Source: an uncultured Acidobacteriota bacterium (GTDB lineage Bacteria > Acidobacteriota > Vicinamibacteria > Marinacidobacterales > Marinacidobacteraceae). From it: a DNA stretch of 41,406 bases. Location of the stretch: contig CAYGAO010000001.1 in assembly GCA_964347715.1 (NCBI GenBank), forward strand, positions 1 to 41,406, given 5' to 3'. The position numbers and the translations under genes were made by a program. The notes beneath the pieces are model-generated. The model saw only the letters and a list, made by a program, of their open reading frames with translations. It did no database searches and was not told the DNA's origin. Below are positions 1 to 41,406 of this stretch, piece after piece; positions within the stretch are counted from its first letter, which is position 1; each line of letters begins with the position of its first letter.

Positions 1-116
1 AATCGCTGGCGCGATCCGTTCCGCCGTCTTTCGCGGGGAGGGAGGACCCTCCCCGTACCCCTCCCCGGCGGCGCTTCGCGCCGCGTCGGCGCACGAGGGA
101 CTTTCTCCACCGCCTG
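1..116 (-). mobile_element. MITE-like structured repeat, copy 1 (left arm only, cut by window start; has a 12-nt hairpin duplication)
   Basis: Its reverse complement aligns with the first ~115 nt of copy 1584..1792: CAGGCGGTGGAGAAAGTCCCTCG, then the GCGGCGC-GAA-GCGCCGC and GGGGAGGG-loop-CCCTCCCC hairpins. Confidence 0.85.
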
Positions 117-117
117 T

Positions 118-183
118 GAAGATCGCCGGGGCCCGAAGATCGCCGGGGCCCGAAGATCGCCGGGGCCCGAAGATCGCCGGGGG
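118..183. repeat. 17-bp perfect tandem repeat GAAGATCGCCGGGGCCC, about 3.9 units
   Basis: Units at 118-134, 135-151 and 152-168, with a partial unit at 169-183. The array starts 2 nt after the terminal repeat of element copy 1. Confidence 0.95.
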
Positions 184-542
184 ATGACGCCGTCGGATCA
201 TTCCGTCCGGGAAGTTCGGGGCGCCGCTGCGGGCGTGCGCCCCGGGCGGGGCCAGCTAGCTACGGGTGCGGATCCTCCGAGTGGTCCGCCGCTTCGCCCA
301 TCCCCGCCGCCAGCTCGCGGATCGGGGGCGCCCTTCCTTCTTGCCGCTCTCGGGGTGCTGTGTTAGCGTGTTTCCCGTTCATGAAGCGCGGGTCGGACGC
401 CTCTCCCCGTTCGCGCTCCCGCCGTCTTCCGTGCTGAGCCGGTCGGCCGGCCCGCTCGGCGGACGCCCCTTCCCGGACCGCCTCGGCGGGTGTGTCCCGG
501 CGCCTGGCTCTCGTCGCCGTGTCGGCCGGTAGCTCCCGCCCG

Positions 543-1583
543 ATGACCCGGATCCCGATCCCCGGAGGGGCCGGCCTCGCCTTCTTCGGCATCCGGGACC
601 GGAACCTCCGCTCGATCGAGGAGGACCTCGGGCTCTCGCTGTCGAGCCGCGGCGATGTGCTGCTCGCTTCCGGCCCGGAGGACCGGATGGCGCTCCTCGA
701 AGCCGCGCTCTCCGGGCTCGCGGCGCTCCAGCCGGATCTGGGCCAGCGCTGCCGGATCGGCGATGTGCGCGCCGCGATCCGGATCCTGGGGCAGGATCCG
801 GGGGCGTCGCTCCGGGAGTACTTCGTCGAAACGGTGGTCACTCCCTCTCCGGGCAAGACGGTCCGCCCCAGGAGCCTCCGCCAGCTCGAGTACCTCCGGG
901 CGATCCGGTCCCGGGATCTCGTCCTCGCGGTCGGGCCCGCCGGAACCGGCAAGACCTGGCTGGCGATGGCGGTTGCGGTCGAGGCGCTCCGCGCCCAGCA
1001 GGTTCGCCGGATCGTGCTCACCCGGCCGGCGGTCGAGGCCGGCGAGAAGCTCGGGTTCCTCCCGGGCGATCTGATCGACAAGGTGGATCCCTATCTCCGT
1101 CCGCTCTACGACGCCCTCCACGACATGATGGATGCGGAGAAGGCGCAGCGGCTGCGCGAGCGCGGCGTGATCGAGATCGCCCCGATCGCGTTCATGCGGG
1201 GCCGGACGCTGAACGACGCCTTCATCATCCTCGACGAGGCGCAGAACACCACCTCGGAGCAGATGAAGATGTTCCTCACCCGGATGGGGAACGGCACTCG
1301 CGCGGTGGTGACCGGCGATATCACCCAGAACGACCTGCCGCCCGGGCGGGTCAGCGGGCTCGTCGAATCGCTGGAGGTGATCGGCGATCTCGACGGGGTG
1401 GGGCTCGTCCGGCTCGGGGAGAGCGATGTGGTCCGCCACCGGCTCGTCCAGGCGATCGTGCGCGCCTACGCGCGGAGCGAGAAGGCGAGAACGCGGCTTC
1501 GGAGCGCACCGGAGCGGGGGACGGTGGCGGGTGCTCCGGAACGCTGGCGCGAGCCCGCGCTCGCGGCCTCCGAGCCGGTCTGA
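543..1583 (+). CDS. phoH: PhoH-like ATPase (YbeZ family)
   Basis: Frame of ORF 492..1583. Walker A is GPAGTGKT. PhoH-type blocks are present: RIVLTRPAVEAGEKLGFLPGD, PLYDAL, IAPIAFMRGRTLNDAFIILDEAQN, VVTGDITQ. ATG 543 is preferred; GTG 492 is the alternative start. Confidence 0.93.
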   Translation: MTRIPIPGGAGLAFFGIRDRNLRSIEEDLGLSLSSRGDVLLASGPEDRMALLEAALSGLAALQPDLGQRCRIGDVRAAIRILGQDPGASLREYFVETVVTPSPGKTVRPRSLRQLEYLRAIRSRDLVLAVGPAGTGKTWLAMAVAVEALRAQQVRRIVLTRPAVEAGEKLGFLPGDLIDKVDPYLRPLYDALHDMMDAEKAQRLRERGVIEIAPIAFMRGRTLNDAFIILDEAQNTTSEQMKMFLTRMGNGTRAVVTGDITQNDLPPGRVSGLVESLEVIGDLDGVGLVRLGESDVVRHRLVQAIVRAYARSEKARTRLRSAPERGTVAGAPERWREPALAASEPV

Positions 1584-1792
1584 CAAGCTGTGGAGAAAGT
1601 CCCTCGCGCGCCGACGCGGCGCGAAGCGCCGCCGGGGAGGGTTCTCCCTCCCCGCGAAAGACGGCGGAACGGATCGCGCAAGCGATTCGGGCCGCCATCC
1701 GGTGGGGGAAGCGCCCCGCATCCGCCCGGACGACGGAGTTCCCCATCGCTTCGAGGACGGATTCCCATGCGGGTCGTCTCATCCACAGGCTG
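1584..1792 (+). mobile_element. MITE-like structured repeat, copy 2 (complete, 209 bp)
   Basis: Terminal inverted repeats are CAAGCTGTGGAGAAAGTCCC and GGA..ATCCACAGGCTG. Direct CTGA repeats flank it at 1580-1583 and 1793-1796. It fills the whole phoH/pgpH spacer. Confidence 0.9.
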
Positions 1793-1800
1793 CTGAGCGG

Positions 1801-4086
1801 GTGATCTCCCCCGAAGGCGCCTCGCCGGCGCCACCCGCCCGAGAGCGCGCCGGGCGTCTTTCGCGGGTTTCGCTTCGGAGCGCCCTGCGGCGTTCGCAGG
1901 ACGCGCTCTTCTCCCGCACCGACTGGGTGGGCGGGCTGCTGGTGGCCGCGATCGGCCTCCTCCTCTGGCCGGACCTCGGTTTCCAGACGCCGCTCTACGA
2001 GGTCGGCGAGATCGCCCCGCGCACCGTCCGCGCGAGCGCCGACTTCACCTACGAGGATGCGGCGGCCACCCGCGAGCGGCGCCGGGAGGCGGTCGAACTC
2101 GTTCCGGATGTCTATGACTTCGACGCCCAGGCCCGCGAGCAGGCGCGGGGGCGGATCGCCCGGGCGTTCGCCTTCGGCCGCGCGGCGATCGCCTCGGGGG
2201 CGCACGAAGAGTCCGACTTCGCCGCGACGGTCTCCCGGCTGCTCGACGCCGAGGTGACCGCTCCCCAGCTCGATCTGCTCACCGCCTCGGGGTTCGCCGA
2301 CGAGGTGCGGCAGAACCTCGCGGATTCGGTGGCGAGCGTGCTCGCGCGCGACATCATCGAGGGAAAGGGAGCGCTCGCCGCGCTCGGTCGGCCGATCCGG
2401 CGCCGCGATCTCTCGACGGGAGCGTCGGTCGCGCTCCGGGACTACTCGAACGTGCTCTCGCTCGAGGAAGCGAGGAGCGCGGTCGAACTCCAGATCCTCG
2501 CGCTCTCGGAGCTGGCCAGCGGCCCCCGGCGCACCCTCGCCGAGCTCGCCGCCGCGCTCGTCCGGCCCACCCTGGAGCGGAACGCGGTGGAGACCACGCG
2601 CCTCCGCAGCGAGGCCCAGCAGGCGGTGGATCCGGTGGTCATCCAGGTGCGCCGCGGGCGGACCGTCGTCCGGGCCGGCGACGAGGTCACCGGGCTCGCC
2701 CGCCGCCAGCTGGAGGAGATGCGGTCGCCCGAGTCCGGCAGGTCCGGGTGGGCCGGCCTCGGGGCCCTCCTCTTCGCGTTCATCGTGGTGGCGCTCCTCC
2801 GCGTCCTGCTCCGACCCGCGCGGTCCGCCGAGCGCTGGGTCGGGCGCACGTTCGCGATGGGCGGCGCGGTCATCGCGCTGCACCTGGCGCTCACCCGGAT
2901 CCTCGGTTTCGTGAGCCGGGGGGCGGCGGCGCAGCTGGTGAGCGAGCCCTTCTCCGACCCCTCGGTCTATCTCTGGGTGATTCCGTTCGCCTCCGCCGCG
3001 CTCCTGATGGTGATCCTCGAGAACGAGGAGTCGGCGGTGGTCACCCAGGCGCTCTTCGCCGCGGCGCTCTCGATGATGACCGGGAACCCGATCCTCGGCC
3101 TCTTCGCGCTCCTCGGCGGCCTGGGCGCGATCTTCATCTACCGCCGCTCGGGGCCCGGGGCGTCGTGGATCCGGGTCGGGGCGCTGTTCGGCCTGATGGG
3201 GGCGGGACTCGTGATCGCGATCGAGCTCGTGGGCCGGGACTACGGGGGGTTTCCCCGCCTGCTGCTCGAGGCCGCGAGCGCCTTCACCGGCGGCCTGCTG
3301 GTGGCCCCGTTCGTCATCCTGCTGTTGCCGCTCTTCGAGAACCTCTTCGAGCGCACGAGCGAGATGCGGCTCATGGAACTCGCCAGGCGGGACAACCCGC
3401 TCCTGCGCCAGCTCGCGCTCAAGGCCCCCGGGACCTACCAGCACAGCGTCACCGTGGGCCTCCTCTCCGAATCGGCCGCCGACGCGATCGGCGCGAATTC
3501 CTCGTTCTGCTCGACCGCCGCGCTCTATCACGACATCGGCAAGCTGAACCGCGCCCGCTACTTCGTCGAGAACGCCGGCGGCGCGACGCCGCACGACGCG
3601 CTCTCGCCGGAAAAGAGCGCCGAGATCATCAGGAAGCATGTCACCGAGGGGATCGAGGCCGCCGAGCGCCTGAATCTCCCGAAGGATGTCGTGGATGTGA
3701 TCCCCCAGCACCACGGCACCAGGATCATCCGGGTGTTCTGGGAAAAGGCGAAGCAGCGCGCGGCCGCGACCGGGGAGATGCCCGACGAGGCGCTCTTCCG
3801 CTACCCCGGGCCCCGGCCCCAGACCCGGGAGGCAGCGATCATCATGGCCGCCGACAGCATCGAGGCCGCCGCGCGCAGCCTGAAGGACCCGACCCGCGAG
3901 AGCTTCGAGCGGGTGATCGACCGGATCATGGACTCGATCGTCGGGGACGATCAGTTCGGCGAGTGCGACCTCACCCTGAGCGACCTCGAACGGATCCGCG
4001 GCGCCTTCCTCTCGACCCTGCTCGCGATCCACCACGAGCGGCTCCCCTACCCGGGGTTCGACTTCGGGCGGCGGCGCCATGGCTGA
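1801..4086 (+). CDS. pgpH: 7TM-receptor HD-domain phosphohydrolase (PgpH/YqfF family)
   Basis: Frame of ORF 1426..4086. GTG 1801 is the first start after the repeat element. It has an extracellular N-domain, multiple TM helices, then the HD motif YQHSVTV...ALYHDIGK and HHG. Confidence 0.88.
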   Translation: MISPEGASPAPPARERAGRLSRVSLRSALRRSQDALFSRTDWVGGLLVAAIGLLLWPDLGFQTPLYEVGEIAPRTVRASADFTYEDAAATRERRREAVELVPDVYDFDAQAREQARGRIARAFAFGRAAIASGAHEESDFAATVSRLLDAEVTAPQLDLLTASGFADEVRQNLADSVASVLARDIIEGKGALAALGRPIRRRDLSTGASVALRDYSNVLSLEEARSAVELQILALSELASGPRRTLAELAAALVRPTLERNAVETTRLRSEAQQAVDPVVIQVRRGRTVVRAGDEVTGLARRQLEEMRSPESGRSGWAGLGALLFAFIVVALLRVLLRPARSAERWVGRTFAMGGAVIALHLALTRILGFVSRGAAAQLVSEPFSDPSVYLWVIPFASAALLMVILENEESAVVTQALFAAALSMMTGNPILGLFALLGGLGAIFIYRRSGPGASWIRVGALFGLMGAGLVIAIELVGRDYGGFPRLLLEAASAFTGGLLVAPFVILLLPLFENLFERTSEMRLMELARRDNPLLRQLALKAPGTYQHSVTVGLLSESAADAIGANSSFCSTAALYHDIGKLNRARYFVENAGGATPHDALSPEKSAEIIRKHVTEGIEAAERLNLPKDVVDVIPQHHGTRIIRVFWEKAKQRAAATGEMPDEALFRYPGPRPQTREAAIIMAADSIEAAARSLKDPTRESFERVIDRIMDSIVGDDQFGECDLTLSDLERIRGAFLSTLLAIHHERLPYPGFDFGRRRHG

Positions 4087-4612
4087 GCCGGAGGCGACGG
4101 CGGGGCGTCCGGAAGCGGGCCGGGGCCGTGACGACCGCCCTCCGGAACCGCCGTCCCCGGAGTTCACGGTCGAGAACCGACAGGACCGTTTCGTCGTGGA
4201 CCGGCGTCCGCTCGAGGCCCTGCTCGCCCGGGTGGCCGCGGAGGTGGCGCCCGAGGATCCGCGGGGCGCGACGCTGCGCATCGTCTCCGACCGGGACATC
4301 CGGGAGCTGAATCGCCGCTACCGGCGTCTCGACCGGGCGACCGATGTGCTCGCCTTTCCGGCGAGCCCGCCGCCGCCCGGGGTCGCCCCCGAGGAAGCCG
4401 CCTACCTCGGGGATCTGGTGATCTCGGCGGAGACCGCGGCCCGGCAGGCGGCGGCAGCCGGGCGTCCGCTAGGCGCGGAACTCGGCGCGCTCGCGGTGCA
4501 CGGCCTGCTCCACCTCGTCGGGTACGACCACGAGCGCGACCGGGGCGAAATGGTCCGGCTCGAGCGGCTGCTCTGTCTCCGCCACGGGCTCGCCGGAGGA
4601 ACCGCCGGGTGA
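4079..4612 (+). CDS. ybeY: rRNA maturation endoribonuclease YbeY
   Basis: Zinc motif HGLLHLVGYDHE. It sits in the conserved phoH-ybeY-corC-era neighbourhood and overlaps the upstream stop by 8 nt. Confidence 0.93.
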   Translation: MAEPEATAGRPEAGRGRDDRPPEPPSPEFTVENRQDRFVVDRRPLEALLARVAAEVAPEDPRGATLRIVSDRDIRELNRRYRRLDRATDVLAFPASPPPPGVAPEEAAYLGDLVISAETAARQAAAAGRPLGAELGALAVHGLLHLVGYDHERDRGEMVRLERLLCLRHGLAGGTAG

Positions 4613-5868
4613 CCGCGCTCTTCGTGGGGTTGCTCCTGCTCGCCGTCGCGCTCGTCGTCCTGTTCGCGGTCTTCGAGGTCGCGTTCTTCGCCTCGGGCCC
4701 GATCGCGGTGCGGGCGCTCGGGAGCGAGGGAGAGCAGGCGCGAGCGCTGCGCGAGCGCCTCGCCGATCCGCTCGCGGTGCTGATTCCGGCGCGCTTCGGC
4801 CTGCTCGTCGCCGCCGGCCTCGTGGTCGTCGCCCTCGCCGGCCTCGGGTTCGGGCTCACCCCCGGGTGGTGGATCCCGGGGGTGTTCCTGCCCGCGTGGT
4901 TCCTCGTCCGCGAGGTGGCGCCGGCGGCGATCCTGCTGCGCGACTCGGAGGAGGTGCTCCGCGGGCTGCTTCCTTGGTTCCGCGGCTGGGAGCGGATCGC
5001 CCGCCCCGGATCGGAGGCGCTCCGGCGGCTCCTCCGCCGCGCCGTCCCGCTCGTCGAGGAGGCCGGCGACGACGCCTCCGAAGAAGAGGTCGAGGCCTTT
5101 CTCGAGACCGGCGAGGAGGAAGGCATCCTCGAAGAAGAAGAGGCGGCGATGGTTCGGGGCGTCCTCGATCTCGACGAGATGCTCGTCCGCGAGGTGATGA
5201 CCGCGCGCCCGCATGTGGTCTCGGTTCCCGGAGGGGCGTCGCGCGCCGAGGTGGAGCGGCTGATCTCCACGAGCCGGCACCACCGGATTCCGGTCTTCGG
5301 GAACCAGGACCAGGTGATCGGGGTCGTGGACGCCGTGGATCTGGTCGCGGCGCCGCCCGCTACCGGAGAGCCCGAGCCGCCGCTCCGGAAGCTCCCGCTG
5401 CGGCGGGTCCCGGTGGTGCCCGAGACGAAGCGGGTGGACGATCTGCTGCGCGAGTTCAAGCTCGCCAAGGAGACCTTCGCCGTCGTGGTGGACGAGCACG
5501 CGAGCGTCTCCGGGATCGTGACGCTCCGCGACATCTCCGGGGAGATCGTGGGCGAGGTGCGCGAGGACGGCGGGCCCGAGGAAGCGGATCTGGTCGCCGA
5601 GGGAGAGGGTTCGTGGGTGGTCCGTGGCGAGGCGGAACTCGCCGAGGTCTCGCGCGCCACCGGTCTCGACCTCCCGGACTCGCTCGACGGGGCGGCGTTC
5701 GACACCGTTTGCGGCCTCGTCCTCGCCGCCTGGCAGCGGATTCCGGAGGTCGGCGAGGTGATCGAGCGCGACCGGGTCGCGTTCGAGATCCTCGAGGCCG
5801 ACGAGCGGCGCGTCCACCGGGTGCGCCTCCGCCGCGCCCCCCGCCCGGCCGGGCCGGCGACGGGCTGA
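4609..5868 (+). CDS. DUF21/CBS-pair/CorC_HlyC membrane protein (hemolysin-TlyC / CorC family)
   Basis: N-terminal TM helices, a CBS region (VMTARPHVVSV..., HHRIPVF, VIGVVD) and a C-terminal CorC-type domain. It overlaps the ybeY stop with GTGA. Confidence 0.88.
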   Translation: MTALFVGLLLLAVALVVLFAVFEVAFFASGPIAVRALGSEGEQARALRERLADPLAVLIPARFGLLVAAGLVVVALAGLGFGLTPGWWIPGVFLPAWFLVREVAPAAILLRDSEEVLRGLLPWFRGWERIARPGSEALRRLLRRAVPLVEEAGDDASEEEVEAFLETGEEEGILEEEEAAMVRGVLDLDEMLVREVMTARPHVVSVPGGASRAEVERLISTSRHHRIPVFGNQDQVIGVVDAVDLVAAPPATGEPEPPLRKLPLRRVPVVPETKRVDDLLREFKLAKETFAVVVDEHASVSGIVTLRDISGEIVGEVREDGGPEEADLVAEGEGSWVVRGEAELAEVSRATGLDLPDSLDGAAFDTVCGLVLAAWQRIPEVGEVIERDRVAFEILEADERRVHRVRLRRAPRPAGPATG

Positions 5869-6777
5869 GTGGAGCCCACAGCCCCCTCCGGGCGCCGGGC
5901 GGGATTCATCGCCCTCGTCGGCCTCCCCGGCGCGGGGAAGTCGACGCTGCTGAACCGCCTGGTGGGCGATCGGCTCGCGATCGTGAGCCCGAAGCCGCAG
6001 ACGACCCGGCGGCGGATCCTCGGGGTCGCGAGCCGTCCGGGGCTCGAGATGGTCCTGCTCGACACTCCCGGGATCCACCGGCCCCGGACCGGCCTCGGGC
6101 GGGCGATGATGCGGACCGTCACCGAGAGCCTCGGCGGCGCCGAGGTGGCGCTCTTCGTCGTGGACGGGACGCGGCCGGCCTCGCGGGAGACCCGGGACCT
6201 TCTCGCGCGGCTGAACGCGCTGCGGGGGCAGGGGGTCGTCGGGATCAACAAGACCGACATCGCCCCCGCCTCCCGGGTCCGGGCGCTCACGGACTTCTGC
6301 CGCGAGCGAACGCCGGGGCCGATCGTCGCCTTCTCGGCGCGGACGGGAGCGAATGTGGAAGGCGGCGGGTCGCTCGTGGGGATCCTCGGGAGCCTCCTGC
6401 CCTTCAGCCCGCGACTCTTCCCGGAGGGGCAGATCACGGACCTTCCGGATGCCTTCTTCGCCTCGGAGATCGTGCGCGAGCGGATGCTCGCGAACCTCCA
6501 TCAGGAGGTCCCCCATCACGGGGCGGTGCGCATCGAGGCCTACGACGACTCCGAGCCCCTCGTCCGGATCGCCGCCTCGCTGCTCCTCGACCGGGATTCG
6601 CAGCGCGGAATCGTGATCGGCAAGGGCGGCCGGATGCTGAAGCGCATCGGGACCGAGGCGCGCCGCGCGATCGAGAAGCGGCTCGGTCGGCGGGTGTTCC
6701 TCGGTCTCCAGGTCAAGGTCCGCTCGGGCTGGCGCGACAACCCCGGCATCCTGCGGGACCTCGGGATCCAGCCCTGA
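5869..6777 (+). CDS. era: GTPase Era
   Basis: G1 motif GLPGAGKSTL, then SPKPQTTR, G3 motif DTPGIH, G4 motif NKTD, and a C-terminal KH domain (GIVIGKGGRMLKRIG). Confidence 0.95.
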   Translation: MEPTAPSGRRAGFIALVGLPGAGKSTLLNRLVGDRLAIVSPKPQTTRRRILGVASRPGLEMVLLDTPGIHRPRTGLGRAMMRTVTESLGGAEVALFVVDGTRPASRETRDLLARLNALRGQGVVGINKTDIAPASRVRALTDFCRERTPGPIVAFSARTGANVEGGGSLVGILGSLLPFSPRLFPEGQITDLPDAFFASEIVRERMLANLHQEVPHHGAVRIEAYDDSEPLVRIAASLLLDRDSQRGIVIGKGGRMLKRIGTEARRAIEKRLGRRVFLGLQVKVRSGWRDNPGILRDLGIQP

Positions 6778-9410: not shown

Positions 9411-9977
9411 GTGGACTTCTTCCAGGTGCGGGACCGCGAGGCCACGGATGCCGAGCACGAGAGGTTCCTGACCGACCTCGGCGACGAAGCCCCGGAGATC
9501 CTTCCTCGCGTCCTCGTGAACGATCGGCTGGCGCTCGCCGCCACCTTCCCGGTGGCGGGGGTCCACCTGCCCGAGGCGGGCCTCCCGGTCCGGGCGGTGC
9601 GCTCCCGGTACCCGCGCGGGCGGCTCCTCGTGGGGCGATCCGTCCACGGGGCGGCCGCGGCGGCGGCGGCGGCCCGGGAAGGGGCGGACTACCTGATCCT
9701 GGGGCCGATCCACGAGACCGGGGGCAAGCGCCCGCTGCCGCCGGGAGCGCCGGGCGAGATCGCGCGGGCGGTCCCCGTTCCGGTGTGGGCGGTCGGCGGC
9801 CTGACCCCCGAGAACCTCGACCGGCTCCGGGGCGCCGGAGTGTCCGGAATGGCGGCGATCCGCGCCTTTCGGGACCCGCCCGCGGCAGCCGCCTTCGTCG
9901 CCAGCGCGCGGCGGCGGTTCCCCGGACTCCGGCCCTCGCGAGCGACGGTTCCGGTGCGACCGGCCGCTCCAGAATGA
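9411..9977 (+). CDS. Thiamine-phosphate synthase family protein (ThiE/TenI-like); true start probably upstream of the first canonical start
   Basis: GVDFFQVRDRE, GVHLPE, VGRSVH, GADYLILGPI, VPVWAVGGL. The conserved N-terminal part (LCAIVPVRGLTPARLRALAAVG) lies in frame at 9279..9410, where only CTG codons are available as starts. Confidence 0.6.
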   Translation: MDFFQVRDREATDAEHERFLTDLGDEAPEILPRVLVNDRLALAATFPVAGVHLPEAGLPVRAVRSRYPRGRLLVGRSVHGAAAAAAAAREGADYLILGPIHETGGKRPLPPGAPGEIARAVPVPVWAVGGLTPENLDRLRGAGVSGMAAIRAFRDPPAAAAFVASARRRFPGLRPSRATVPVRPAAPE

Positions 9978-9996
9978 TCCGGAGAACCTGGTTCCC

Positions 9997-11559
9997 ATGA
10001 TCGCTGGCGGGCGGCGGGCGGCGGCGCTCTTCGTCATCCTCGGCGCGCCGCCGCTCTTCGCGCAGCCGGAGAGCGAGCTCGATCGCGCCGCCGAACGGCG
10101 GTTTCGCAGCGCCGAGCAGTTCTACGCGGTCGGACGCCACACCCAGGCGCTCCGCGACTTCGAGGCGATCGTCGAGGCGATGCCCGGCAGCCGGCTCGCC
10201 GACGACGCGGCGCTCCGGATCGCCCGCCACCGGTTCGCGGTCGAGGGCGACCCGGCGGCGGCGGAGGCGGCGCTCGACCGGCTCTTCCGCGAGTACCCGG
10301 CCGGCGACGCCGTCCCGGGCGCGCATCTGCTGCTCGGGCAGATCGCGCTCGCGAGCGTGCCGCCCCGGCCCCTCGATGCGCTCGCCGAGTTCGAGCGGGC
10401 GCTCTCCGCCGCGGGATCCCCCAGGTCCCGCTGGTCGTTCGCGGCGCTGACCGGGATCGCCGAGGTGTCCTGGGACTTCGCCGACGACGCGCAGGCGGCC
10501 GGGGCGCTGCTCGCCGCGCTCCACGAGACCAGCCCGGACCCGGGCTCCGAGCCGGACCGCCTCGCGGCGCGGTTCTTCCTCGCCCGCGCTCTGGCCCGCA
10601 GCCGCGCCCTCGAGGCGGCGCTCGCGGAGATCGCGAGCCTGCGCGCCGATCTGCTCCGCCTCGAGCGGCGCCCGACGCCGGACCCCGAGGCCAACGGCTT
10701 CTCTCCCGCGGCGCTCGCCGACCGCGCGAGCGACCTCGCGGCGCTGATCGAGCGCTACCGGGCCCCCGGTGGTCCCGACTGGAGGGTCGCCGGAGCGGTC
10801 TCGCCGCCGCGGCGTCTCGACGATCCGCGTCGCGTCCGCTTCGCGGGCGGGCTGATCCATGTGCTCGACCAGGACACCGACGAGCTCCAGAGCTTCACCA
10901 CGGCGGGGGACTTCCAGGGGGCGCTCGGGATCGACGACCCCCGGGACCTCGTGTTCGCGGACCGGTCGGGCGCCTCCGCGGCCCTCGCCCCGCTCGCGGT
11001 GGTGGCGGCGGGGGACACGCTCGTCGTGGACGGGAACCCGATGCGCCTCGCGGTTCCCGAGGGCGGGAGCTCCGAGCCGCTGCGGCGGATCCGGGCGGCG
11101 GCGGTCACCCCCTTCGGCTTCTGGGTGTGGGACGACCGGGAGAAGGCCGTCTTCTCCTTCGCCAGGTCGGGCCTCTTCCTCGGACGGGTGCCGCATCCCG
11201 AACTCGACCGGGTCCGGCGGATCGCCCGCCACCCGGCCGGGCGCCTGATCGTCGCCACGGAGAAGCAGGGGGTGCTCGGGTTCGACGCGACCGGCCGCCG
11301 GATCTTCCACCTGTCCCGGCAGGGCGGGGTCGAGGAGCCGGTGGATCTCGCGTTCGACGGGCTCGGAAACCTGATCGTCCTCGGCCGCGACGAGCCGGTG
11401 ATCGCGGTCTTCGACCGCGACTTCGCCCATCTCGCGACCCTCGCCGGCGCTGGCTGGCCGGGCGGTTCCCGCCGCGAACCGGTCTCGCTCGATGTCGGCC
11501 CCGACGGGAGCCTGTTCGTGCTCGACGAAGGCGCCCGCGCGGTGCTGGTGCTGCGATGA
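9997..11559 (+). CDS. Secreted TPR (YbgF-like) plus NHL/beta-propeller repeat protein
   Basis: Signal-like N-terminus AALFVILGAPPLFAQP. TPR-like helices. C-terminal repeats of NHL type: GNLIVLGRDEPVIAVFD and DGSLFVLDEGARAVLVL. Confidence 0.7.
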   Translation: MIAGGRRAAALFVILGAPPLFAQPESELDRAAERRFRSAEQFYAVGRHTQALRDFEAIVEAMPGSRLADDAALRIARHRFAVEGDPAAAEAALDRLFREYPAGDAVPGAHLLLGQIALASVPPRPLDALAEFERALSAAGSPRSRWSFAALTGIAEVSWDFADDAQAAGALLAALHETSPDPGSEPDRLAARFFLARALARSRALEAALAEIASLRADLLRLERRPTPDPEANGFSPAALADRASDLAALIERYRAPGGPDWRVAGAVSPPRRLDDPRRVRFAGGLIHVLDQDTDELQSFTTAGDFQGALGIDDPRDLVFADRSGASAALAPLAVVAAGDTLVVDGNPMRLAVPEGGSSEPLRRIRAAAVTPFGFWVWDDREKAVFSFARSGLFLGRVPHPELDRVRRIARHPAGRLIVATEKQGVLGFDATGRRIFHLSRQGGVEEPVDLAFDGLGNLIVLGRDEPVIAVFDRDFAHLATLAGAGWPGGSRREPVSLDVGPDGSLFVLDEGARAVLVLR

Positions 11560-13700: not shown

Positions 13701-13701
13701 G

Positions 13702-14394
13702 ATGACGACCTCCCCCCGCTCGGGCCGCCGCGCGAAGTCCCACTACGCGCTCGTCGTGGAGACGGCCTCGTCCGGGAGTACTCCGGGCGAGCGGCGCGCT
13801 CCGCCGGCGCGCTACGAGATCGCGGCGCGGGAGACGATCATCGGGCGCGCTCCGGCGTGCGCGATCCGGATCGACGACGCCTTCGTGAGCCGCGAGCACG
13901 CCCGTCTGCTGCTGCGGGACCTCGACCTCCACCTCGAGGACCTCGGCAGCACGAACGAGACCCGCCTCGACGGGGCGCTCGTCGAGACCCGCGTCCGGGT
14001 GCGCCAGGGGAGCGAGCTCCGGCTCGGCAGCGCCGTCTGCCGGATCGAGGGCTGCCCGTCGCCGCCGGGTCGGAAGGCGGCGGCGCCCGGCGAGAGCTCC
14101 GGGCCTTCGGAAGCCGGGCCACCCCCGGTGGCGGAGCGCCGGCCGATGGCGCCCGGTGCGGATACCGCCCCCCGGGAGAGCCGGGAACCCGACGAGGCCA
14201 GCCATCCGGGAGAGATGGGTCTCCCCGGCGAGGATCCCATCCCCCGGGAGAGCCGGGAACTCCCGGCGGGCGAGGCCCTGGTCCCGGGAAACGTCCGCCG
14301 GCTCGGGCCGACGCCGGTGATCACGCTCGTCGCGCTGGTGGCGGCGCTCGTGCTGCTCCTGGTCGCCGGCGCGCTCTGGATCTCTTGGCGATAA
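13702..14394 (+). CDS. FHA-domain protein with C-terminal TM anchor
   Basis: FHA core IIGRAPACAIRIDDAFVSREHARLLL...LEDLGSTNETRLDG. C-terminal helix VITLVALVAALVLLLVAGALWI. Confidence 0.85.
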   Translation: MTTSPRSGRRAKSHYALVVETASSGSTPGERRAPPARYEIAARETIIGRAPACAIRIDDAFVSREHARLLLRDLDLHLEDLGSTNETRLDGALVETRVRVRQGSELRLGSAVCRIEGCPSPPGRKAAAPGESSGPSEAGPPPVAERRPMAPGADTAPRESREPDEASHPGEMGLPGEDPIPRESRELPAGEALVPGNVRRLGPTPVITLVALVAALVLLLVAGALWISWR

Positions 14395-19968: not shown

Positions 19969-20096
19969 CGCCGACGGATCCTTCGCGATCCGCGGCAGGT
20001 CTCGCGCCGGATCGGCGAGCCGCGCGACGGCCTCGGGAACGAACGATGCGATCCCGCCGTCGGCCCTCGCGCCGGCGCCGGGCCGCCCCGGGGGGC

Positions 20097-28609: not shown

Positions 28610-28639
28610 CGGGAGCGAGGTGGGGCCGTCAGGCGTCAG

Positions 28640-28848
28640 CAGCCGGTGGACGAGGCGCCCCGCAGGGGAATCCGTCCTCGAAGAGATGGGGAACCCCGTC
28701 GTCCGGGCGGATGCGGGGCGCTTTCCCCACCGGATGGCGGCCCGAATCGCTGGCGCGATCCGCTCCGCCCTCCTTCGCGGGGAGGGAGGACCCTCCCCGG
28801 CGGCGCTTCGCGCCGCGTCGGCGCCTGAGGGACCTTCTCCACAGCCTG
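28640..28848 (-). mobile_element. MITE-like structured repeat, copy 5 (complete, 209 bp)
   Basis: Direct TCAG repeats at 28636-28639 and 28849-28852. The right one contains the trpE stop codon. The element sits between trpE and trpG. Confidence 0.9.
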
Positions 28849-32211: not shown

Positions 32212-32224
32212 GCTCCGAGTCTAG

Positions 32225-32335
32225 CGGGCTGTGGAGAACGTCCCTCGCGCGACGACGCGGCGCGGAGCGCCGCCGGGGAGGGTCCTCCCTCCCTGCGAAA
32301 GACGGCGGAACGGATCGCGCAAGCGATTCGGGGGC
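32225..32335 (+). mobile_element. MITE-like repeat, copy 6 (left arm only, forward)
   Basis: It matches the first ~110 nt of the family, up to the GGATCGC-GCAA-GCGATTC hairpin, and then diverges. The outer flank is CTAG (32221-32224). Confidence 0.85.
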
Positions 32336-32485: not shown

Positions 32486-32491
32486 CCCGAA

Positions 32492-33382
32492 ATGCGCCAT
32501 CTCCCGCTTCTTCTCGCTCTCTTGTGGTCGACCTCCGGCGGCGCGGCCCCGCAGTCCGAAGACGCCGAACGCCGGATCCTGGAGCACATCCGCGACACGA
32601 TGCAGCCCGGCGAGCGCGTCCTGCTCTCCCCGCTCGTCGAGCGCTTCCAGGCTCCCGACGAGCAGCGCGCCCTCGACCGGCTGAACGATGTGTTCTTCCG
32701 GATGCCGCTCTTCATCGTCGAGTTCGAGGGCCGGGAGGGGCGGCTCCCCTCGCTCGCCGAGGTCTCCGGCCAGTTCTCGCTCTACGGCGAGGAGGCGGCC
32801 GACATCGTGCTCCGCATCATGGAATCCGATCCCCGCGTCCCGAAGTTCCTCGTCCGGGACGGGCAGGGCGCGCTCGTCTCGATCGATCAGGATCTGGTGC
32901 GGGCGGACGAGCGGTTCGCGCGCGCGGTGAGCCGCAGCCTGACCGGTTGGGAAGGGCGGACGCTCCCCGAGATCGCCGGCGAGCGCTTCGGCGGCGGCGA
33001 GGCGGCGGTGGCGGACCTGATGGAAGACGCCACCCTCGTCTATGTGTGGTTCACGGATTGTCCGCCCTGCGTCCAGATCGCTCCGGTTCTCGGAGCCCTC
33101 CACCGGGATCTCGCCGGCGACGGGCTCCGCATCGTCGGGCTGAACGCCGACCGGGTGCTCAAGCTGCCCTACACCGACGAGGACCGCGCGGCGCGTCAGG
33201 AGAAGGCGGGGGTGAGCTTCGAGAACCTGCACCTGACCGACGAGGCGAGGGCCGCGCTCGGGAACGTGAACATCTTCCCGACCCTGTTCCTCGCCCGGCG
33301 GGACGGGACGATCGTCCGCCACTTCGTGAACTTCCAGCCGCGCGAGACGCTCGAACCCGCGATCCGGGAACTCCTCCCGTAG
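32492..33382 (+). CDS. Secreted TlpA-like thioredoxin-fold protein (CPPC) with N-terminal domain of unknown function
   Basis: Signal peptide MRHLPLLLALLWSTSGGAA. C-terminal thioredoxin fold: VYVWFTDCPPCVQIAPVL...IVGLNAD...FPTLFLARRDG. Confidence 0.8.
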   Translation: MRHLPLLLALLWSTSGGAAPQSEDAERRILEHIRDTMQPGERVLLSPLVERFQAPDEQRALDRLNDVFFRMPLFIVEFEGREGRLPSLAEVSGQFSLYGEEAADIVLRIMESDPRVPKFLVRDGQGALVSIDQDLVRADERFARAVSRSLTGWEGRTLPEIAGERFGGGEAAVADLMEDATLVYVWFTDCPPCVQIAPVLGALHRDLAGDGLRIVGLNADRVLKLPYTDEDRAARQEKAGVSFENLHLTDEARAALGNVNIFPTLFLARRDGTIVRHFVNFQPRETLEPAIRELLP

Positions 33383-33385
33383 CAG

Positions 33386-33498
33386 GGCGGCCCGAATCGC
33401 TTGCGCGATCCGTTCCGCCGTCTTTCGCGGGGAGGGCGGACCCTCCCGGGCGGCGCTTCGCGTCGCGTCGGCGCGCGAGGGACTTTCTCCACAGCCTG
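33386..33498 (-). mobile_element. MITE-like repeat, copy 7 (left arm only, inverted relative to copy 6)
   Basis: Its reverse complement matches the first ~113 nt of the family and breaks at almost the same internal point as copy 6. The outer flank is GTAG (33499-33502). Confidence 0.85.
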
Positions 33499-33548
33499 GT
33501 AGCGCGCCGGGGCGCCGTCGCCCCCGGCGCGTGACCGCGCTCCGCGTC

Positions 33549-33577
33549 TTGACAAGGGTTCACTCACATCTTATACT
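33549..33577 (+). promoter_or_regulatory. dnaK promoter TTGACA-17 nt-TATACT with overlapping partial HAIR-like (HspR operator) sequence
   Basis: TTGACA at 33549-33554 and TATACT at 33572-33577, in a locally AT-richer stretch. CTTGACA-N7-ACTCACA at 33548-33568 matches 10 of 14 positions of CTTGAGT-N7-ACTCAAG. Confidence 0.6.
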
Positions 33578-33645: not shown

Positions 33646-35571
33646 ATGAGCAGGATCATCGGCATCGACCTCGGCACCACGAACTCGGTGGTCGCGGTGA
33701 TCGAGGGCGGCCAGCCCACGATCATCCCGAACGCCGAGGGTGGGCGGACCACCGCTTCGGTCGTGGGCATCTCGAAGTCGGGCGAACGGCTCGTCGGCGA
33801 GGTGGCGAAGCGGCAGGCGATCACGAACCCGAAGAACACGGTCTTTTCGATCAAGCGGTTCATGGGGCGGCGCTTCGACGAAGCCGCCTCGGAGCGCGAC
33901 CAGGCCCCCTACGAGATCCGCAGGAAGGACGACGGCGGGGTCGAGGTCGAGATGGGCGACAAGCGCTACACCCCGCCCGAGATCTCGGCGATGGTGCTCC
34001 AGAAGATGAAGTCGTCCGCCGAGAAGTACCTCGGCGAGACCGTCGAGCGGGCGGTGATCACCGTGCCGGCCTACTTCAACGACTCCCAGCGCCAGGCGAC
34101 GAAGGACGCCGGCGAGATCGCCGGGCTCGAGGTCGTCCGGATCGTGAACGAGCCGACGGCCGCCGCGCTGGCCTACGGGCTCGAGAAGCAGAAGAGCGAG
34201 AAGATCGCCGTGTACGACTTCGGCGGCGGCACCTTCGACATCTCGATCCTCGAGGTGGGCGAAGGGGTCGTCGAGGTGCGTTCCACGAACGGCGACACCT
34301 ACCTCGGCGGCGACGACCTCGACAAGCGGGTCATGGACTGGATCGTCAGGGAGTTCCGGAAGTCGGACGGGATCGATCTCGGCGCCGACCGGATGGCCCT
34401 CCAGCGGCTCCGGGATGCGGCGGAGAAGGCGAAGGTCGAACTCTCGACCACCCACGAGACCGAGATCAACCTGCCGTTCATCACCGCGGACGCTTCGGGC
34501 CCGAAACATCTCACCCTGACGCTCTCGCGCTCGAAGCTCGAGGCGCTCATCGGGGACCTCCTCGAACGGACCCGGAAGCCCTGCCTCCAGGCGCTCGAGG
34601 ACGCGGGCCTCCGGAACGACTCGGTGGACGAGGTGGTGCTCGTCGGCGGCACCACGCGGATCCCGCGCGTCCAGGAGCTCGCGAAGGAGATCTTCGGCGC
34701 CGAGCCCCACCAGGGGGTGAATCCCGACGAGGTGGTGGCGCTCGGCGCCGCGATCCAGGCCGGGGTGCTCGGCGGGGATGTGAAGGATCTGCTCCTCCTC
34801 GATGTGACCCCGCTCTCGCTCGGCATCGAGACGCTCGGCGGAGTCTTCACCCGGCTGATCGAGCGGAACACGACGATCCCGCACAAGGCGAACGATGTGT
34901 TCTCGACGGCGAGCGACAACCAGCCCCAGGTGGAAGTCCATGTGCTCCAGGGCGAGCGGTCCATGGCGTCGGACAACCGCACGCTCGGCAAGTTCACCCT
35001 GACCGGGATCCCGCCAGCGCCCCGCGGGATGCCGCAGATCGAGGTCACCTTCGACATCGATGCGAACGGCATCGTGAACGTCTCCGCGAAGGACCGGGCG
35101 ACCGGCCGCGAGCAGGCGATCACGATCACCGCCTCGAGCGGCCTCACGAAGGAAGAGATCGAGACGATGAAGCAGGAGGCGTCCCGGAACGAGGAAGCCG
35201 ACAAGACCCGCCGCGAGGAAGTGGAGTTCCGGAACGAGACCGATTCGCTCGTCCACCAGGTCGAGAAGCTCCTGAACGAGAACCGCGACAAGGTCGAGGA
35301 ACCCGACCGCACCCGGATCGAGAGCGCGATCTCGACGGCGCGGGCCGCGCTCGCCGGAGACGACCTCGACAAGATCCGCGCGGTCCGCTCCGAGGTGGAG
35401 TCGGCGAGCCACCGACTCGCCGAGGTCATGTACCAGAAGACGGCGGCGTCCGCGCCGGGCGAGGCCGGAGCCGACGCGCCGCCGCCTCCGCCGCCGCCGC
35501 GACGGAAGAAGAGCAAGGGGAACGGCGCCGCGGACGACATCATCGACGCGGAGGTCGTGAACGACAGCTGA
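33646..35571 (+). CDS. dnaK: Chaperone DnaK (Hsp70)
   Basis: [23 protein letters not shown] (here [11 protein letters not shown]), [17 protein letters not shown] lies upstream of ATG 33646. Confidence 0.97.
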
Positions 35572-35774
35572 CAGCCGGTGGATAGAGCGCCCTGCATGGG
35601 AATCCGTCCTCGAAGAGATGGGGAACCCCATCGTCCGGGCGGATGCGGGGCGCCTTCCCGACAGGATGGCGGCCGGAATCGCTTGCGCGATCCGTTCCGC
35701 CCGCTTTCGCGGGGAGGGAGGACTCTCCCCGCACCCCTCCGCGTCGGCGCGCGAGGGACTTTCTCCACCGCCTG
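35572..35774 (-). mobile_element. MITE-like structured repeat, copy 8 (complete, 203 bp; net 6 nt shorter than the 209-bp copies)
   Basis: Direct CTGA repeats at 35568-35571 (this one includes the dnaK stop) and 35775-35778. The element sits between dnaK and dnaJ. Confidence 0.9.
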
Positions 35775-35791
35775 CTGAGGCGCTGGCGGCG

Positions 35792-38075: not shown

Positions 38076-38110
38076 GCCGCTCGGGCCGCACGAACGGAGG
38101 AGATTCGGCC

Positions 38111-39091: not shown

Positions 39092-39123
39092 CGCCGGGGG
39101 TGTCCGAATTCGACACCCCGGCG
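39092..39123. promoter_or_regulatory. 12-bp-stem inverted repeat CGCCGGGGGTGTC-CGAATTC-GACACCCCGGCG (terminator or operator)
   Basis: Read directly from the sequence. It lies in the 222-bp spacer between the creatininase-family gene and the AAA+ gene. Confidence 0.3.
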
Positions 39124-39166
39124 CGCTACTCTTCTCCCGGTTCCGAACACCGACACGGAGAGGGCG

Positions 39167-41245
39167 ATGCAACTCACGGCCAGCGAGCGACGCCGCATCG
39201 TCGCCTGGCTGGCGAACGCCGCCGGTCAGCTCCGCCACGACGCGCCGGAAGCCGGTGATCTCGCGGAGTGGGTCGCCGGGCACACGGGCCTGCTGGAGCT
39301 CGAAGGGCTCCCGACGAACCCCTCCGGGCGCCGCGACCACGCGGACGGCGTGCCGCTGACGGAGTGGCGCCGGCTCCGGGGCGTCCTCGCGGACGCCGTC
39401 CCGCCCGCGCCCCGGTCGCGGGGAGACCGGATCGAGCAGCGGCTGCGCAGTCTCGGGCGGGAACTGGGTCTCGGGCGGACGGATCTGGCGATCCTCGAAA
39501 TCCTGCTCCGCTACCGCGTGCAACCGCTCGTCGAGGACCTGGTGGACAGCGTATTCGCCGGCGGCGGGGTCGGTCACCGGCGTCCCTTCCACCTGAAGAG
39601 TCCGGCGCTCGCGAGCCTGCTCGGCATGCGGGCGAGCACCGTTCTCGGTCGCGTCGAGTCCGACGCGCCGCTCGTGAAGTCGGGGCTCGTGTCCATCGAC
39701 GGCGACGGCGACCTCGAGCTCGTGGACCGCTTGCGCCGACTGGCCCGGACGGGTGCCGGCGCTGGCCGCGAGGCGTGCCGACTGCTGTTCGACCGCGCGC
39801 CCGCGAGCGACCTCGAGTGGGCGGATTTCGAGCATGTGGCGGAAGACCGGGATCAGGTCGAGAGAACCCTGCGGGGCGCCCTCGATACCGGCGCGGCCGG
39901 CGTGAACATCCTTCTCTACGGGCCTCCGGGCACCGGGAAGACCGAGTTCTGCCGGGTGCTCGCGGACCGGTTGGGGGTGGCGCTCTACAGCGTTGGCGAA
40001 ACGGACGAGGATGGCCACGAGCCTCGCCGCGTCGAGCGGCTCCAGGAGTTGCGGCTGGCGCAGGGTCTCCTCGCGCGCAGCGGGAGGTCGCTCCTCCTCT
40101 TCGACGAGATGGAGGATCTGCTCGCCTCCCCGGCGCCGTTCCTGCCGCTCGAGCGCTCGGGAAGCGCCGGGGCAAGGGGCTCGAAGGTGTTCCTGAACCG
40201 GCTGCTCGAGCAGAACCCGGCGCCCACGCTGTGGACCTCGAACTCCGGCGAGAGGACTTGTCGGACCCTGCTGCGACGCATGATGTTCGCCTTCGAGCTG
40301 CGCCCGCCACGACTCCGGGCGCGGGCGCGCATCTGGGCGCGGCAGCTCGCGCACCACGGCATCGCGGCGGGAGCGGGCGAGGCGCGCGCCCTGGCCTCGG
40401 AATTCGAGGTGACGCCCGGCGTCGTGTCGGAGGCCGTCGCCGCCGCCCGGCTCGCGGGCGGTGGCCTCGAAGCGGTGCGCCGCCATGTGCGGAGCCTCTG
40501 TCGGGTGATGGGGTGCGAAAAGCCGCCGCGCGGAACGCCAGAACGGTTCGATCCCGCCCTGATCCGGGCCGACCTGGACCCGACCACGCTGGCCGACCGG
40601 CTCGAGCGGAGCGGCGGCGGTCGGCGTTTCTCCCTCTGCCTCGAGGGGCCGCCCGGCACCGGCAAGAGCGCGTTCGTCCGCCATATCGCGGAGCGGATCG
40701 GTATCGAGATCCTGTCGAAGCGCGCCTCCGACCTGATGGGTCCGTTCGTCGGGGAGACCGAGCAGCGCATCGCCGCGGCCTTTGCCGAGGCGCGCTCCAC
40801 GCAGTCCTTCCTCGTCTTCGACGAAGCCGAGTCGCTCCTCCAGGACCGGCGCTTCGCCACGCGGAACTGGGAGATCAGCCAGGTCAACGAGATGCTGACC
40901 TGGATGGAGAGCCACCCGCTCCCCTTCGCCTGCACCACGAACTTCGGCGAGCGCCTCGACCCCGCGACCCGGCGCCGGTTCGACTTCAAGATCACGCTCG
41001 ACTACCTCGCCCCCGAGCAGGCGGTGGCCGCGTTCCGCCTCTACTTCGATCTCCCTCCGCCACCGGCAGTCGCTCGCCTTCCGGCCCTGACCCCGGGCGA
41101 TTTCCCGGTCGTCCGCCGAAAGGCCGCGATCCTGGGCAGCCTCGAGGAGCCGGAGGAACTCGCCGCGATGTTGCTGGCGGAGTGCGAGTCCAGGCCACAG
41201 CGCTCCCGGCGGATCGGTTTCCCGGGCTCGGCCCGCCCGGCCTGA
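39167..41245 (+). CDS. Tandem double-AAA+ ATPase with ~270-aa N-terminal domain of unknown function
   Basis: GGAGAGGG upstream of ATG 39167. Module 1: YGPPGTGKTEF, LLLFDEMED, TSN. Module 2: GPPGTGKSAF, FLVFDEAES, CTTN, RRRFD. Confidence 0.85.
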   Translation: MQLTASERRRIVAWLANAAGQLRHDAPEAGDLAEWVAGHTGLLELEGLPTNPSGRRDHADGVPLTEWRRLRGVLADAVPPAPRSRGDRIEQRLRSLGRELGLGRTDLAILEILLRYRVQPLVEDLVDSVFAGGGVGHRRPFHLKSPALASLLGMRASTVLGRVESDAPLVKSGLVSIDGDGDLELVDRLRRLARTGAGAGREACRLLFDRAPASDLEWADFEHVAEDRDQVERTLRGALDTGAAGVNILLYGPPGTGKTEFCRVLADRLGVALYSVGETDEDGHEPRRVERLQELRLAQGLLARSGRSLLLFDEMEDLLASPAPFLPLERSGSAGARGSKVFLNRLLEQNPAPTLWTSNSGERTCRTLLRRMMFAFELRPPRLRARARIWARQLAHHGIAAGAGEARALASEFEVTPGVVSEAVAAARLAGGGLEAVRRHVRSLCRVMGCEKPPRGTPERFDPALIRADLDPTTLADRLERSGGGRRFSLCLEGPPGTGKSAFVRHIAERIGIEILSKRASDLMGPFVGETEQRIAAAFAEARSTQSFLVFDEAESLLQDRRFATRNWEISQVNEMLTWMESHPLPFACTTNFGERLDPATRRRFDFKITLDYLAPEQAVAAFRLYFDLPPPPAVARLPALTPGDFPVVRRKAAILGSLEEPEELAAMLLAECESRPQRSRRIGFPGSARPA

Positions 41246-41253
41246 CCGGATAG

Positions 41254-41406
41254 CAGGCTGTGGTGAAAGTCTCCCGGGCACAGACGCGGCGCGCAGCGCC
41301 GCCGGGGAGGGTGTTCCCTCCCCGCGAAAGCGGGCGGAACGGATCGCGCAGGCGATTCGGGCCGCCATCCGGTGGGGAAAGCGCCCCGCATCCGCCCGGA
41401 CGATGG
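41254..41406 (+). mobile_element. MITE-like structured repeat, copy 9 (forward, cut by window end)
   Basis: CAGGCTGTGGTGAAAGTC followed by the same hairpin series. It starts 8 nt after the stop of the AAA+ gene. Confidence 0.88.

Follow-up and report, generated by a model that had tools for sequence, protein, structure and literature searches.

A Family of Miniature Inverted-Repeat Transposable Elements in Uncultured Vicinamibacterales and Its Probable IS5/IS1182-Type Partner

The stretch of DNA analyzed here, referred to as the window throughout, is the whole of contig CAYGAO010000001.1 (41,406 bp, 73.6% G+C) from an uncultured Acidobacteriota bacterium (assembly GCA_964347715.1). [quoted passage not shown] The repeat defines a new MITE family in uncultured Acidobacteriota (Vicinamibacterales); the kind of element is ordinary and well known. 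A preliminary description of the window, made from the sequence alone, took the density of copies as a sign of an abundant genome-wide family and offered two readings, a MITE or a repeated structured RNA. The first of these options has been borne out by terminal inverted repeats (TIRs), 4-bp target-site duplications (TSDs), absence of the element from relatives and a partner IS, while the second has found no positive support. The same description could not assign the repeat to any family, which no longer holds because the element can be tied to an IS5/IS1182-type IS.

Termini and Target-Site Duplications

Imperfect TIRs of ~16–24 nt (CAGCCKGTGGAKAAAG...) are present in all full copies, and alignment of the termini confirmed the earlier impression that the two ends are imperfect inverted repeats. 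Full copies begin with CAGCCKGTGGATAAAG... and finish with ...CTTTCTCCACMGCCTG; the left end reads CAGCCKGTGGATAAAGCGCCCC and the right end, when reverse-complemented, CAGGCKGTGGAGAAAGTCCCTCGC. Over all loci, full-length elements measure 203–222 bp, a short variant measures 111–129 bp, and pairwise identity of copies across the family is 81–94%. The element is non-coding: all six frames are open but give only spurious read-through open reading frames (ORFs), and no Pfam domain is found in the read-through portions.

Copies are flanked by 4-bp direct repeats whose sequence varies from copy to copy. When window copies are combined with copies from other contigs, 14 independent full-length insertions are available, six of which have perfect repeats (TCAG, TCAG, CTGA, CTAT, CCAA and TCAG); five further insertions agree at three of four positions, so that at least three positions match in 11 of 14. 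With per-site chance probabilities of 0.014 (four of four) and 0.116 (at least three of four), the corresponding binomial tails are ~2e-8 and ~1e-8. The duplicated tetramers CTAT, ATAG and TCAA are rare in this DNA (0.04–0.1 of the uniform expectation). Two short copies also have perfect duplications, GTAG and TCAA, if a residual CAGG joined to model position ~97–103 is accepted as their left terminus, and for this reason the short form looks like a deletion variant that retains, or formerly had, a minimal left end.

The Probable Partner Insertion Sequence

Searching for a longer autonomous element with the same termini, a check proposed in the preliminary description, was successful: a 1,496-bp IS with a DDE transposase was found in locus L028, with a further copy in L029. 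The connection is made by a deposited read-through protein, P0176, in which element-derived residues are joined to a DUF772 transposase domain. The locus encoding P0176, L027, belongs to a 260-kb contig with MITE copies. A unit of ~1.5 kb in this locus has CAGGCTGTGGAGAAAGTCGG and ...CTTTCTTCCACAGCCTG as its boundaries. At least eight frameshifts disrupt its transposase frame while the neighboring genes are intact, and the unit is therefore a degenerate IS that harbors a nested MITE. The stitched L027 protein retrieved an intact 476-amino-acid (aa) homologue, P0189 (92% identity), which is the product of the single ORF of an intact IS at positions 9958–11453 of L028. This IS is flanked by a perfect ATAG/ATAG duplication and lies inside an amidohydrolase gene; its left end is CAGCCTGTGGAGAAAGTCGG and its right end (reverse complement) is CAGCCCGTGGACGAAGGGGT. 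The second copy, at 9959–14486 of L029, is 98% identical, has a perfect GTAG/GTAG duplication and is interrupted by other ISs. L029 lies on a 202-kb contig that also bears MITE copies, among them one flanked by TCAG/TCAG.

The MITE and the IS have in common their terminal 16–18 nt and the 4-bp length of the TSD, and their interiors are unrelated. Since the internal sequence is not shared, the MITE appears to be a cross-mobilized element rather than a simple deletion derivative of the present IS. Origin of the MITE by internal deletion of the IS was considered and rejected, as the likeness is confined to the termini. The identities between MITE ends and IS ends are too alike to pair any MITE end with a particular IS end.

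Precomputed Pfam domains of P0189 are DUF772 (PF05598), DDE_Tnp_1 (PF01609) and, weakly, DDE_Tnp_1_6 (PF13751). The partner IS thus fits the architecture of IS1182 (these three domains, a single ORF, ~1.3–1.9 kb, TIRs), which also occurs in some IS5-family members and does not discriminate between the two. The best IS family model for P0189 is the NCBIfam IS1182 equivalog NF033551, whose cut-off is missed (168 bits against 270). Among the IS5 equivalogs (NF033578–NF033581), the best score, 104.7 bits with IS5_4, likewise falls short of the cut-off of 140. We refer to the partner as IS5/IS1182-type because neither curated threshold is reached. The nearest annotated relatives of P0189 (54% identity over 85% of the length) are encoded by Sphingobium plasmids pLB1 (AB244976.1) and pCHQ1 (NC_014007.1), and the Sphingobium homologue was labelled "IS5 family transposase" by its depositors. 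Since the Sphingobium ISs are alike in termini and flanks, the partner IS can be placed in a clade that is already established and is marked by CAG... termini and duplications of 4 bp.

Several features of the IS-bearing loci were recorded along the way. The decayed IS of L027 contains a run of ~40 G (positions 10190–10231) where the intact IS of L028 has 7 G; the longer run is a genuine homopolymer expansion or else an artefact of long-read assembly. In L029, a DDE_Tnp_1_4 element and an IS3-family element (HTH_Tnp_1 and rve domains) have split the partner IS (9959–14486); with an ISL3-family transposase and an SfiI-like restriction-modification pair nearby, this region has the look of a mobile-DNA hotspot. 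At 535–5912, ~4 kb upstream of the intact IS, L028 carries a complete type I-C CRISPR-Cas gene set (Cas5d, Csd1, Cas7, Cas4, Cas1 and Cas2).

Dispersal of the Family and Empty Sites

A 42-nt degenerate core of the element (AATCGC...GGGAGGG) matches the window exactly nine times and gives no match in 100 dinucleotide-preserving shuffles. When one genome per species was scanned with this core (185,579 species), the only hit was a 23-kb contig of a Vicinamibacterales metagenome-assembled genome (MAG) with at least six copies in 15 kb. This contig has no other DNA-level likeness to the window, and its copies are thus independent insertions. That the core was found in a single MAG contig means either that the family is narrow or that the pattern is too strict. 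Scanning metagenomes with the right terminus (GAGGGACTTTCTCCACNGC) yielded 17 single matches, all of them chance occurrences in unrelated sequence with no inverted partner; no match to the element DNA was found in a plasmid collection, and no similar sequence among annotated records.

A six-frame concatenated translation of the element, compared with a protein collection of 5.8 billion clusters, retrieved 68 deposited read-through proteins from many ENA and NCBI contigs of up to 454 kb, and we conclude that the family is widely dispersed in the lineage. Element copies were also seen in L027, L029 and L030. Copies are thus known from many contigs in several assemblies, well beyond the window, as was expected of a genome-wide repeat.

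Two arrangements of copies outside the window deserve mention. At 9955–10594 of L030, right after the cdsA stop codon, three head-to-tail copies are fused into a tandem array (period 210, 90% matches). Its junctions join the right terminus of one copy to position ~10 of the following one (…CCACAGCC-CGATAAA…), a pattern that points to slippage or unequal recombination and not to three insertions made separately. The two copies at 2759–2979 and 3393–3613 of L029 have identical flanks and are 634 bp apart; they look like a tandem segmental duplication carrying a MITE copy.

A search for DnaK homologues located the species of the window in two further assemblies. One of them, L020, is 98.8% identical to the window over 17.8 kb and has all copies in common with it; no presence/absence polymorphism was seen between these two near-identical strains. 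Five relatives whose DnaK is 83–85% identical keep the gene order and contain no element copy in up to 22 kb each. The trpG-trpE spacer is 33 bp long and element-free in L022–L024, as opposed to 239 bp in the window; subtraction of the element and one TCAG from the latter leaves a spacer of ~26–30 nt. Likewise, the dnaK-dnaJ spacer is element-free and 26–87 bp long in the five relatives and 220 bp long in the window. An exact filled/empty pair is available from the IS itself: a 222-bp MITE copy in L027 is inserted precisely at the CTGA of ...GGGGATATC-CTGA-CGGGCATG..., a site that is uninterrupted in the 93%-identical paralogous IS copy of L028.

Probable Target Preference and Stop Codons

When written in the same orientation, all clean targets conform to N-T-R-R: CTGA (several times), ATAG, GTAG, TTGA, TTAG and TTGG. 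Flanks of the Sphingobium relative, CTAA/CTAG, are likewise N-T-R-R. The comparison of insertion sites thus points to an N-T-R-R target preference. The TRR triplet covers all stop codons, TGA, TAG and TAA. Both flanks can be read in seven window copies, and five of these have the stop codon of the neighboring gene (phoH, aroA, trpE, the thioredoxin-like gene and dnaK) within the TSD. The stop codon of cdsA in L030 lies in a TSD as well. Spacers reconstructed for the time before insertion are very short, 0 nt for aroKDE|aroA, ~9 nt for aroA|aroB, ~13 nt for dnaK|dnaJ and ~27 nt for trpG|trpE, and held 0–3 TRR sites each. Relative to the upstream gene, three of the stop-abutting copies are in the sense and three in the antisense orientation.

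The following scheme would account for these observations. A DDE transposase would be supplied in trans by the 1.5-kb IS5/IS1182-type IS and would recognize the TIRs common to IS and MITE. The element would be cut out or copied and inserted at a staggered 4-bp N-T-R-R target, the target being duplicated on both sides. In a 74%-GC genome with genes packed at spacers of 0–30 nt, the stop codon of an upstream gene would be among the very few insertion sites that are tolerated, and the duplication would regenerate this stop, so that many copies would begin right after a stop codon in housekeeping operons (phoH, aroA, trpE, dnaK). Copies would thus abut stop codons because TRR includes them, because spacers are tiny and because insertions into coding sequence are selected against; in other words, purifying selection and target preference together probably funnel surviving insertions onto stop codons.

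Alternative Explanations

Mobilization of the MITE in trans by the partner transposase, the N-T-R-R preference and selection as the cause of stop-codon abutment are the inferred parts of this scheme, and several points weigh against it. All the evidence is comparative, and none of it comes from observed transposition. The link between MITE and IS consists of the termini and the TSD length, and the window itself does not contain the partner IS. The contigs that bear it have a G+C content of 68–70.5%, compared to 73.6% for the window, and may belong to a sister species rather than to the genome of the window itself; they come from the same sample (ERZ25070786) as the 98.8%-identical copy of the window. 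The N-T-R-R consensus derives from ~15 sites only. The short variant has no recognizable left TIR past CAGG, and three of five short copies have no clean TSD. The spacers of the relatives are too diverged to provide base-perfect empty sites at window loci. Finally, no two copies are identical (94% at most), and there is hence no sign of current activity.

One can ask whether the repeat serves mainly as a functional structured RNA or as an intercistronic cis-regulatory element (a stabilizer, a processing site or an attenuator) kept by selection. The folds of its two strands are indeed more stable than those of shuffled sequences (z = -2.4 and -4.1), perfect hairpins rich in GC (AATCGC-N4-GCGAT, GGGGAGGG-N4-CCCTCCCC and GCGGCGC-N3-GCGCCGC) occur within it, and it is necessarily co-transcribed in the aro, trp and dnaK-dnaJ operons. 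Exaptation of MITEs of such kind has been noted in a review (PMC10969869). However, much of the fold stability comes from the inverted termini and the perfect internal palindromes. In an RNAalifold analysis of eleven copies, the covariation term was unfavorable (+2.71); hardly any pair varies, and what double changes there are trace to a single subfamily. The comparison with Rfam, suggested at the outset, assigned no family to the repeat at either the gathering or the permissive (E<=1) threshold: only a tRNA passed the gathering threshold in the whole window, and the best permissive matches on a copy were 14–20 bits as opposed to 38–97, with E of 0.2–1. Moreover, stop-abutting copies lie in either orientation, scans of the copies gave nothing that resembles a promoter or terminator motif, orthologous operons of the five relatives work without the element, and its spread is explained by TSDs and the partner IS without invoking function. 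We therefore regard a primary function of this sort as improbable. The copies resemble each other too closely for covariation to be tested strongly; a secondary, co-opted RNA role is thus conceivable, with nothing in these comparisons in its favor. A related proposal retains the MITE and adds to it: the MITE would be a stop-codon-seeking (N-T-R-R) element in essential-operon junctions (shikimate, tryptophan, dnaK-dnaJ), present at a density above that reported in a prokaryote-wide census, with hairpins possibly co-opted to tune operon expression or stability. In this extended form, the proposal is speculative and, in our estimate, rather unlikely to be correct.

Repetitive extragenic palindromes (REPs) and bacterial interspersed mosaic elements (BIMEs) are imperfect palindromes of 20–40 nt with a conserved GTAG head, without TIRs or TSDs and with an associated RAYT gene. 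Intergenic sites, high local density, internal palindromes and some GTAG/CTAC flanks of the repeat, a tetranucleotide typical of REPs, recall this group, whose spread would depend on a RAYT (an IS200/IS605-type tyrosine transposase) rather than a DDE transposase. Such an origin is very improbable: the unit of ~209 bp has TIRs and 4-bp direct duplications that vary, features that are not left by IS200/IS605-type transposition, neither the window nor the fetched loci yielded a RAYT or Y1 transposase, and a DDE-type IS with identical termini and equal TSD length exists. It is scarcely conceivable that the copies are independently decayed remnants of full IS insertions or assembly artefacts. Their termini do match those of a real IS, and decayed IS copies occur in the lineage, but ~170 internal bases are homologous among all copies and unrelated to the IS interior, which excludes independent deletions as their origin. 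The same copies are found at 96–99% identity in independent assemblies of other samples (L020 and L021) and in an NCBI MAG. A MITE mobilized by the IS5/IS1182-type partner thus remains the reading that we prefer.

Copies and Gene Context in the Window

The nine copies comprise five full ones (203–210 bp), two short ones (~111–116 bp) and two cut by the contig ends. A repeat scan of the window, whose direct and inverted families correspond to the same copies, the core pattern and an nhmmer profile built from four copies, which matched the same nine places and nothing further, agree that all copies originally listed are there, exactly or within a few bases. Together they cover 1,536 bp, i.e., 3.7% of the window (in line with the original estimate of a few percent) and ~39% of its non-coding DNA. 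Full window copies are 87–92% identical to each other, 25604–25813 excepted. Strands are given below relative to the orientation of the copy at 24091.

The contig starts with the right-hand part of a copy (1–116, + strand; nhmmer model positions 106–209, E=7e-27), which was placed by alignment and has the right flank TGAA. The copy at 1584–1792 (209 bp, − strand) separates phoH from a 7TM-HD (pgpH-like) gene and has the CTGA duplication at 1580–1583 and 1793–1796; the phoH stop codon TGA (1581–1583) falls inside the left TSD. The copy at 24091–24299 (209 bp, + strand) is located between aroA and an aroK-aroD-aroE fusion gene, with flanks TCAT/TCAA that agree at three of four positions. It is bordered by the aroA stop (TCA/TGA, 24300–24302) on one side and the start of the fusion gene (CAT/ATG, 24088–24090) on the other, and the two genes probably overlapped (ATGA) prior to the insertion. 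The copies at 1584 and 24091 are 90% identical without gaps, which fits the ~20 ungapped mismatches counted by hand beforehand. The full-length but divergent copy at 25604–25813 (210 bp, − strand), between aroB and aroA, has flanks that agree at two of four positions only, and its left half diverges (72–77% identity to the other copies). Between trpE and trpG, the copy at 28640–28848 (+ strand) is the third with a length of exactly 209 bp, as first reported, and is flanked by perfect TCAG at 28636–28639 and 28849–28852; the trpE stop (TCA, TGA on the − strand) is inside the right TSD.

The two short copies had been described as half copies. Both are present, and they rather represent a recurrent short variant that has its own 4-bp duplication in some cases. 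The one at 32225–32335 (~111 bp, − strand) is a right-hand part (model positions ~102–207) with an approximate left boundary, and lies in the divergent intergenic region between an SLH gene and a thioredoxin-like gene. The other, initially placed at 33386, is better put at 33383–33498 (116 bp, + strand), between the thioredoxin-like gene and dnaK; it has a residual CAGG left terminus fused to model position ~97 onward and perfect GTAG at 33379–33382 and 33499–33502, the left TSD holding the stop codon TAG. The 296-aa ORF flanked by these two inverted copies (32492–33382) was considered as an autonomous parent element and rejected because it encodes a secreted thioredoxin-like protein that is conserved in place in element-free relatives. 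The full copy at 35572–35774 (203 bp, + strand), between dnaK and dnaJ, has a variant internal segment and perfect CTGA at 35568–35571 and 35775–35778, with the dnaK stop codon TGA inside the left TSD. The last copy (41254–41406, − strand) is cut by the contig end. The ATAG at 41250–41253 is one copy of a duplication that is seen complete in L020, where the ortholog from the same species (17604–17823) is 220 bp long and flanked by perfect CTAT/CTAT. No copy is present in the 22-kb stretch between 1793 and 24090 despite spacers of 95–227 bp, and all other complete copies are within 24–36 kb.

Genes of the window were mapped from codon usage, and all 34 called genes were scanned against Pfam. 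The window is ~90% coding and contains housekeeping genes only: phoH, the 7TM-HD gene, ybeY, corC, era, rpsP, rimM, trmD and rplS; a secretin cluster; aroC, the aroK-aroD-aroE fusion, aroA, aroB and a DAHP synthase gene; trpG and trpE; and the thioredoxin-like gene, dnaK, dnaJ and hspR. The gene map and strand calls agree with the first impression that all copies are intergenic and occur in both orientations; in most cases the two neighbors are co-directional members of a single operon (phoH|7TM-HD, aroKDE|aroA, aroA|aroB, trpG|trpE and dnaK|dnaJ). Neither the Pfam scan of the 34 genes nor tblastn with the partner transposase revealed a transposase in the window, which confirms its reported absence.

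The fusion gene (22039–24090, − strand) is a single 683-aa ORF that combines shikimate kinase, type I dehydroquinase and shikimate dehydrogenase, and its ATG directly adjoins the end of a MITE copy. The sole strong σ70-like promoter match in 13 kb, TTGACA-17-TATACT (11 of 12 positions; 33549–33577, + strand), is upstream of dnaK and ~50 bp downstream of the short MITE copy, which was inserted between the stop codon of the upstream gene and the promoter and left the latter intact. An N6/N4 DNA methyltransferase gene (19078–20100, − strand) is found amid housekeeping genes (lolA and the secretin cluster), with no adjoining restriction partner recognized, and may encode an orphan methylase. A tRNA-Ala(CGC) at 20860–20935 (− strand) was called by both ARAGORN and Rfam. 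The 93-nt tRNA-Ala(GGC) called by ARAGORN at 29595–29687 (+ strand) lies within the trpE coding region on the opposite strand, has no Rfam support and is probably a false positive.

Implications

This work adds a MITE family and its probable partner IS from a poorly studied uncultured soil and sludge lineage, the Vicinamibacterales; the understanding of how MITEs work is unchanged by it. Given its share of the non-coding DNA, the element should be useful for annotation of Vicinamibacterales MAGs. At least 68 deposited proteins (P0121–P0188) are spurious ORFs or real genes falsely extended through element copies, e.g., P0127, P0133, P0138 and P0141, which combine genuine Pfam domains with element-derived tails. 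Such read-through proteins constitute a class of annotation artefacts in this lineage. The repeats probably also break short-read assemblies, as both contig ends fall inside copies. More generally, the family may illustrate how, in a compact high-GC genome, insertions can be directed onto stop codons in essential operons by an N-T-R-R target preference together with purifying selection.

Comparison with Known Systems

The Sphingobium IS of pLB1 and pCHQ1 resembles the partner IS in length (1,457 vs. 1,496 bp), in CAG termini identical at 15 of 20 positions (CAGGCCGTTGACGAAGTCGG vs. CAGCCTGTGGAGAAAGTCGG) and in its 4-bp flanks, CTAA/CTAG. Unlike the MITE, it is autonomous, comes from Alphaproteobacteria, where no MITE is annotated with it, and is a relative of the partner IS only. 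Tourist MITEs are non-autonomous and share only their termini with a DDE transposon, PIF-Harbinger, of an IS5-related superfamily; they are eukaryotic, have a 3-bp TSD (TWA, stop-codon-like) and need two proteins. The likeness to the present element, i.e., terminal sharing and a short, A/T-containing, stop-like TSD, is an analogy only.

Among bacterial repeats, Correia elements duplicate a TA target. Correia/NEMIS of Neisseria, ERIC/IRU of enterobacteria and RUP/BOX of pneumococcus are small, TIR-bounded, abundant non-coding repeats that are often co-transcribed and form hairpins (PMC10969869). The present element is likewise small, TIR-bounded, non-coding and intergenic, and differs from all of them in sequence, partner IS family and TSD.

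MITEPye1 of Paracoccus yeei, an alphaproteobacterium, is intergenic and 159 bp long, with 18-bp TIRs that resemble the TIRs of the IS1182-family ISPye18, 4-bp direct repeats and predicted stable stem-loops; its copies are 96–100% identical and number 1–3 per chromosome, and its trans-mobilization was inferred from TIR similarity only (PMC11578231). The present element is similarly short, non-coding and intergenic, has IS1182-type TIRs and 4-bp repeats, is predicted to fold into stem-loops and would, on the same grounds, be mobilized in trans. It is set apart from MITEPye1, as described, by its length of 203–222 bp, identity of 81–94%, subfamilies and short variant, nine copies in 41 kb and occurrence in Vicinamibacterales. 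A 2024 prokaryote-wide census of MITEs gives maxima of 123 copies per Mb (Wolbachia) and 1.23% of the DNA (PMC11602168). The corresponding values in the window are 217 copies per Mb and 3.7%, which are not to be extrapolated, as the window was chosen as repeat-rich, the other loci were found via the element, and L028 (14.5 kb), the sole locus found through the IS alone, has no element copy. Local density is the only feature that makes this family unusual among its kind.

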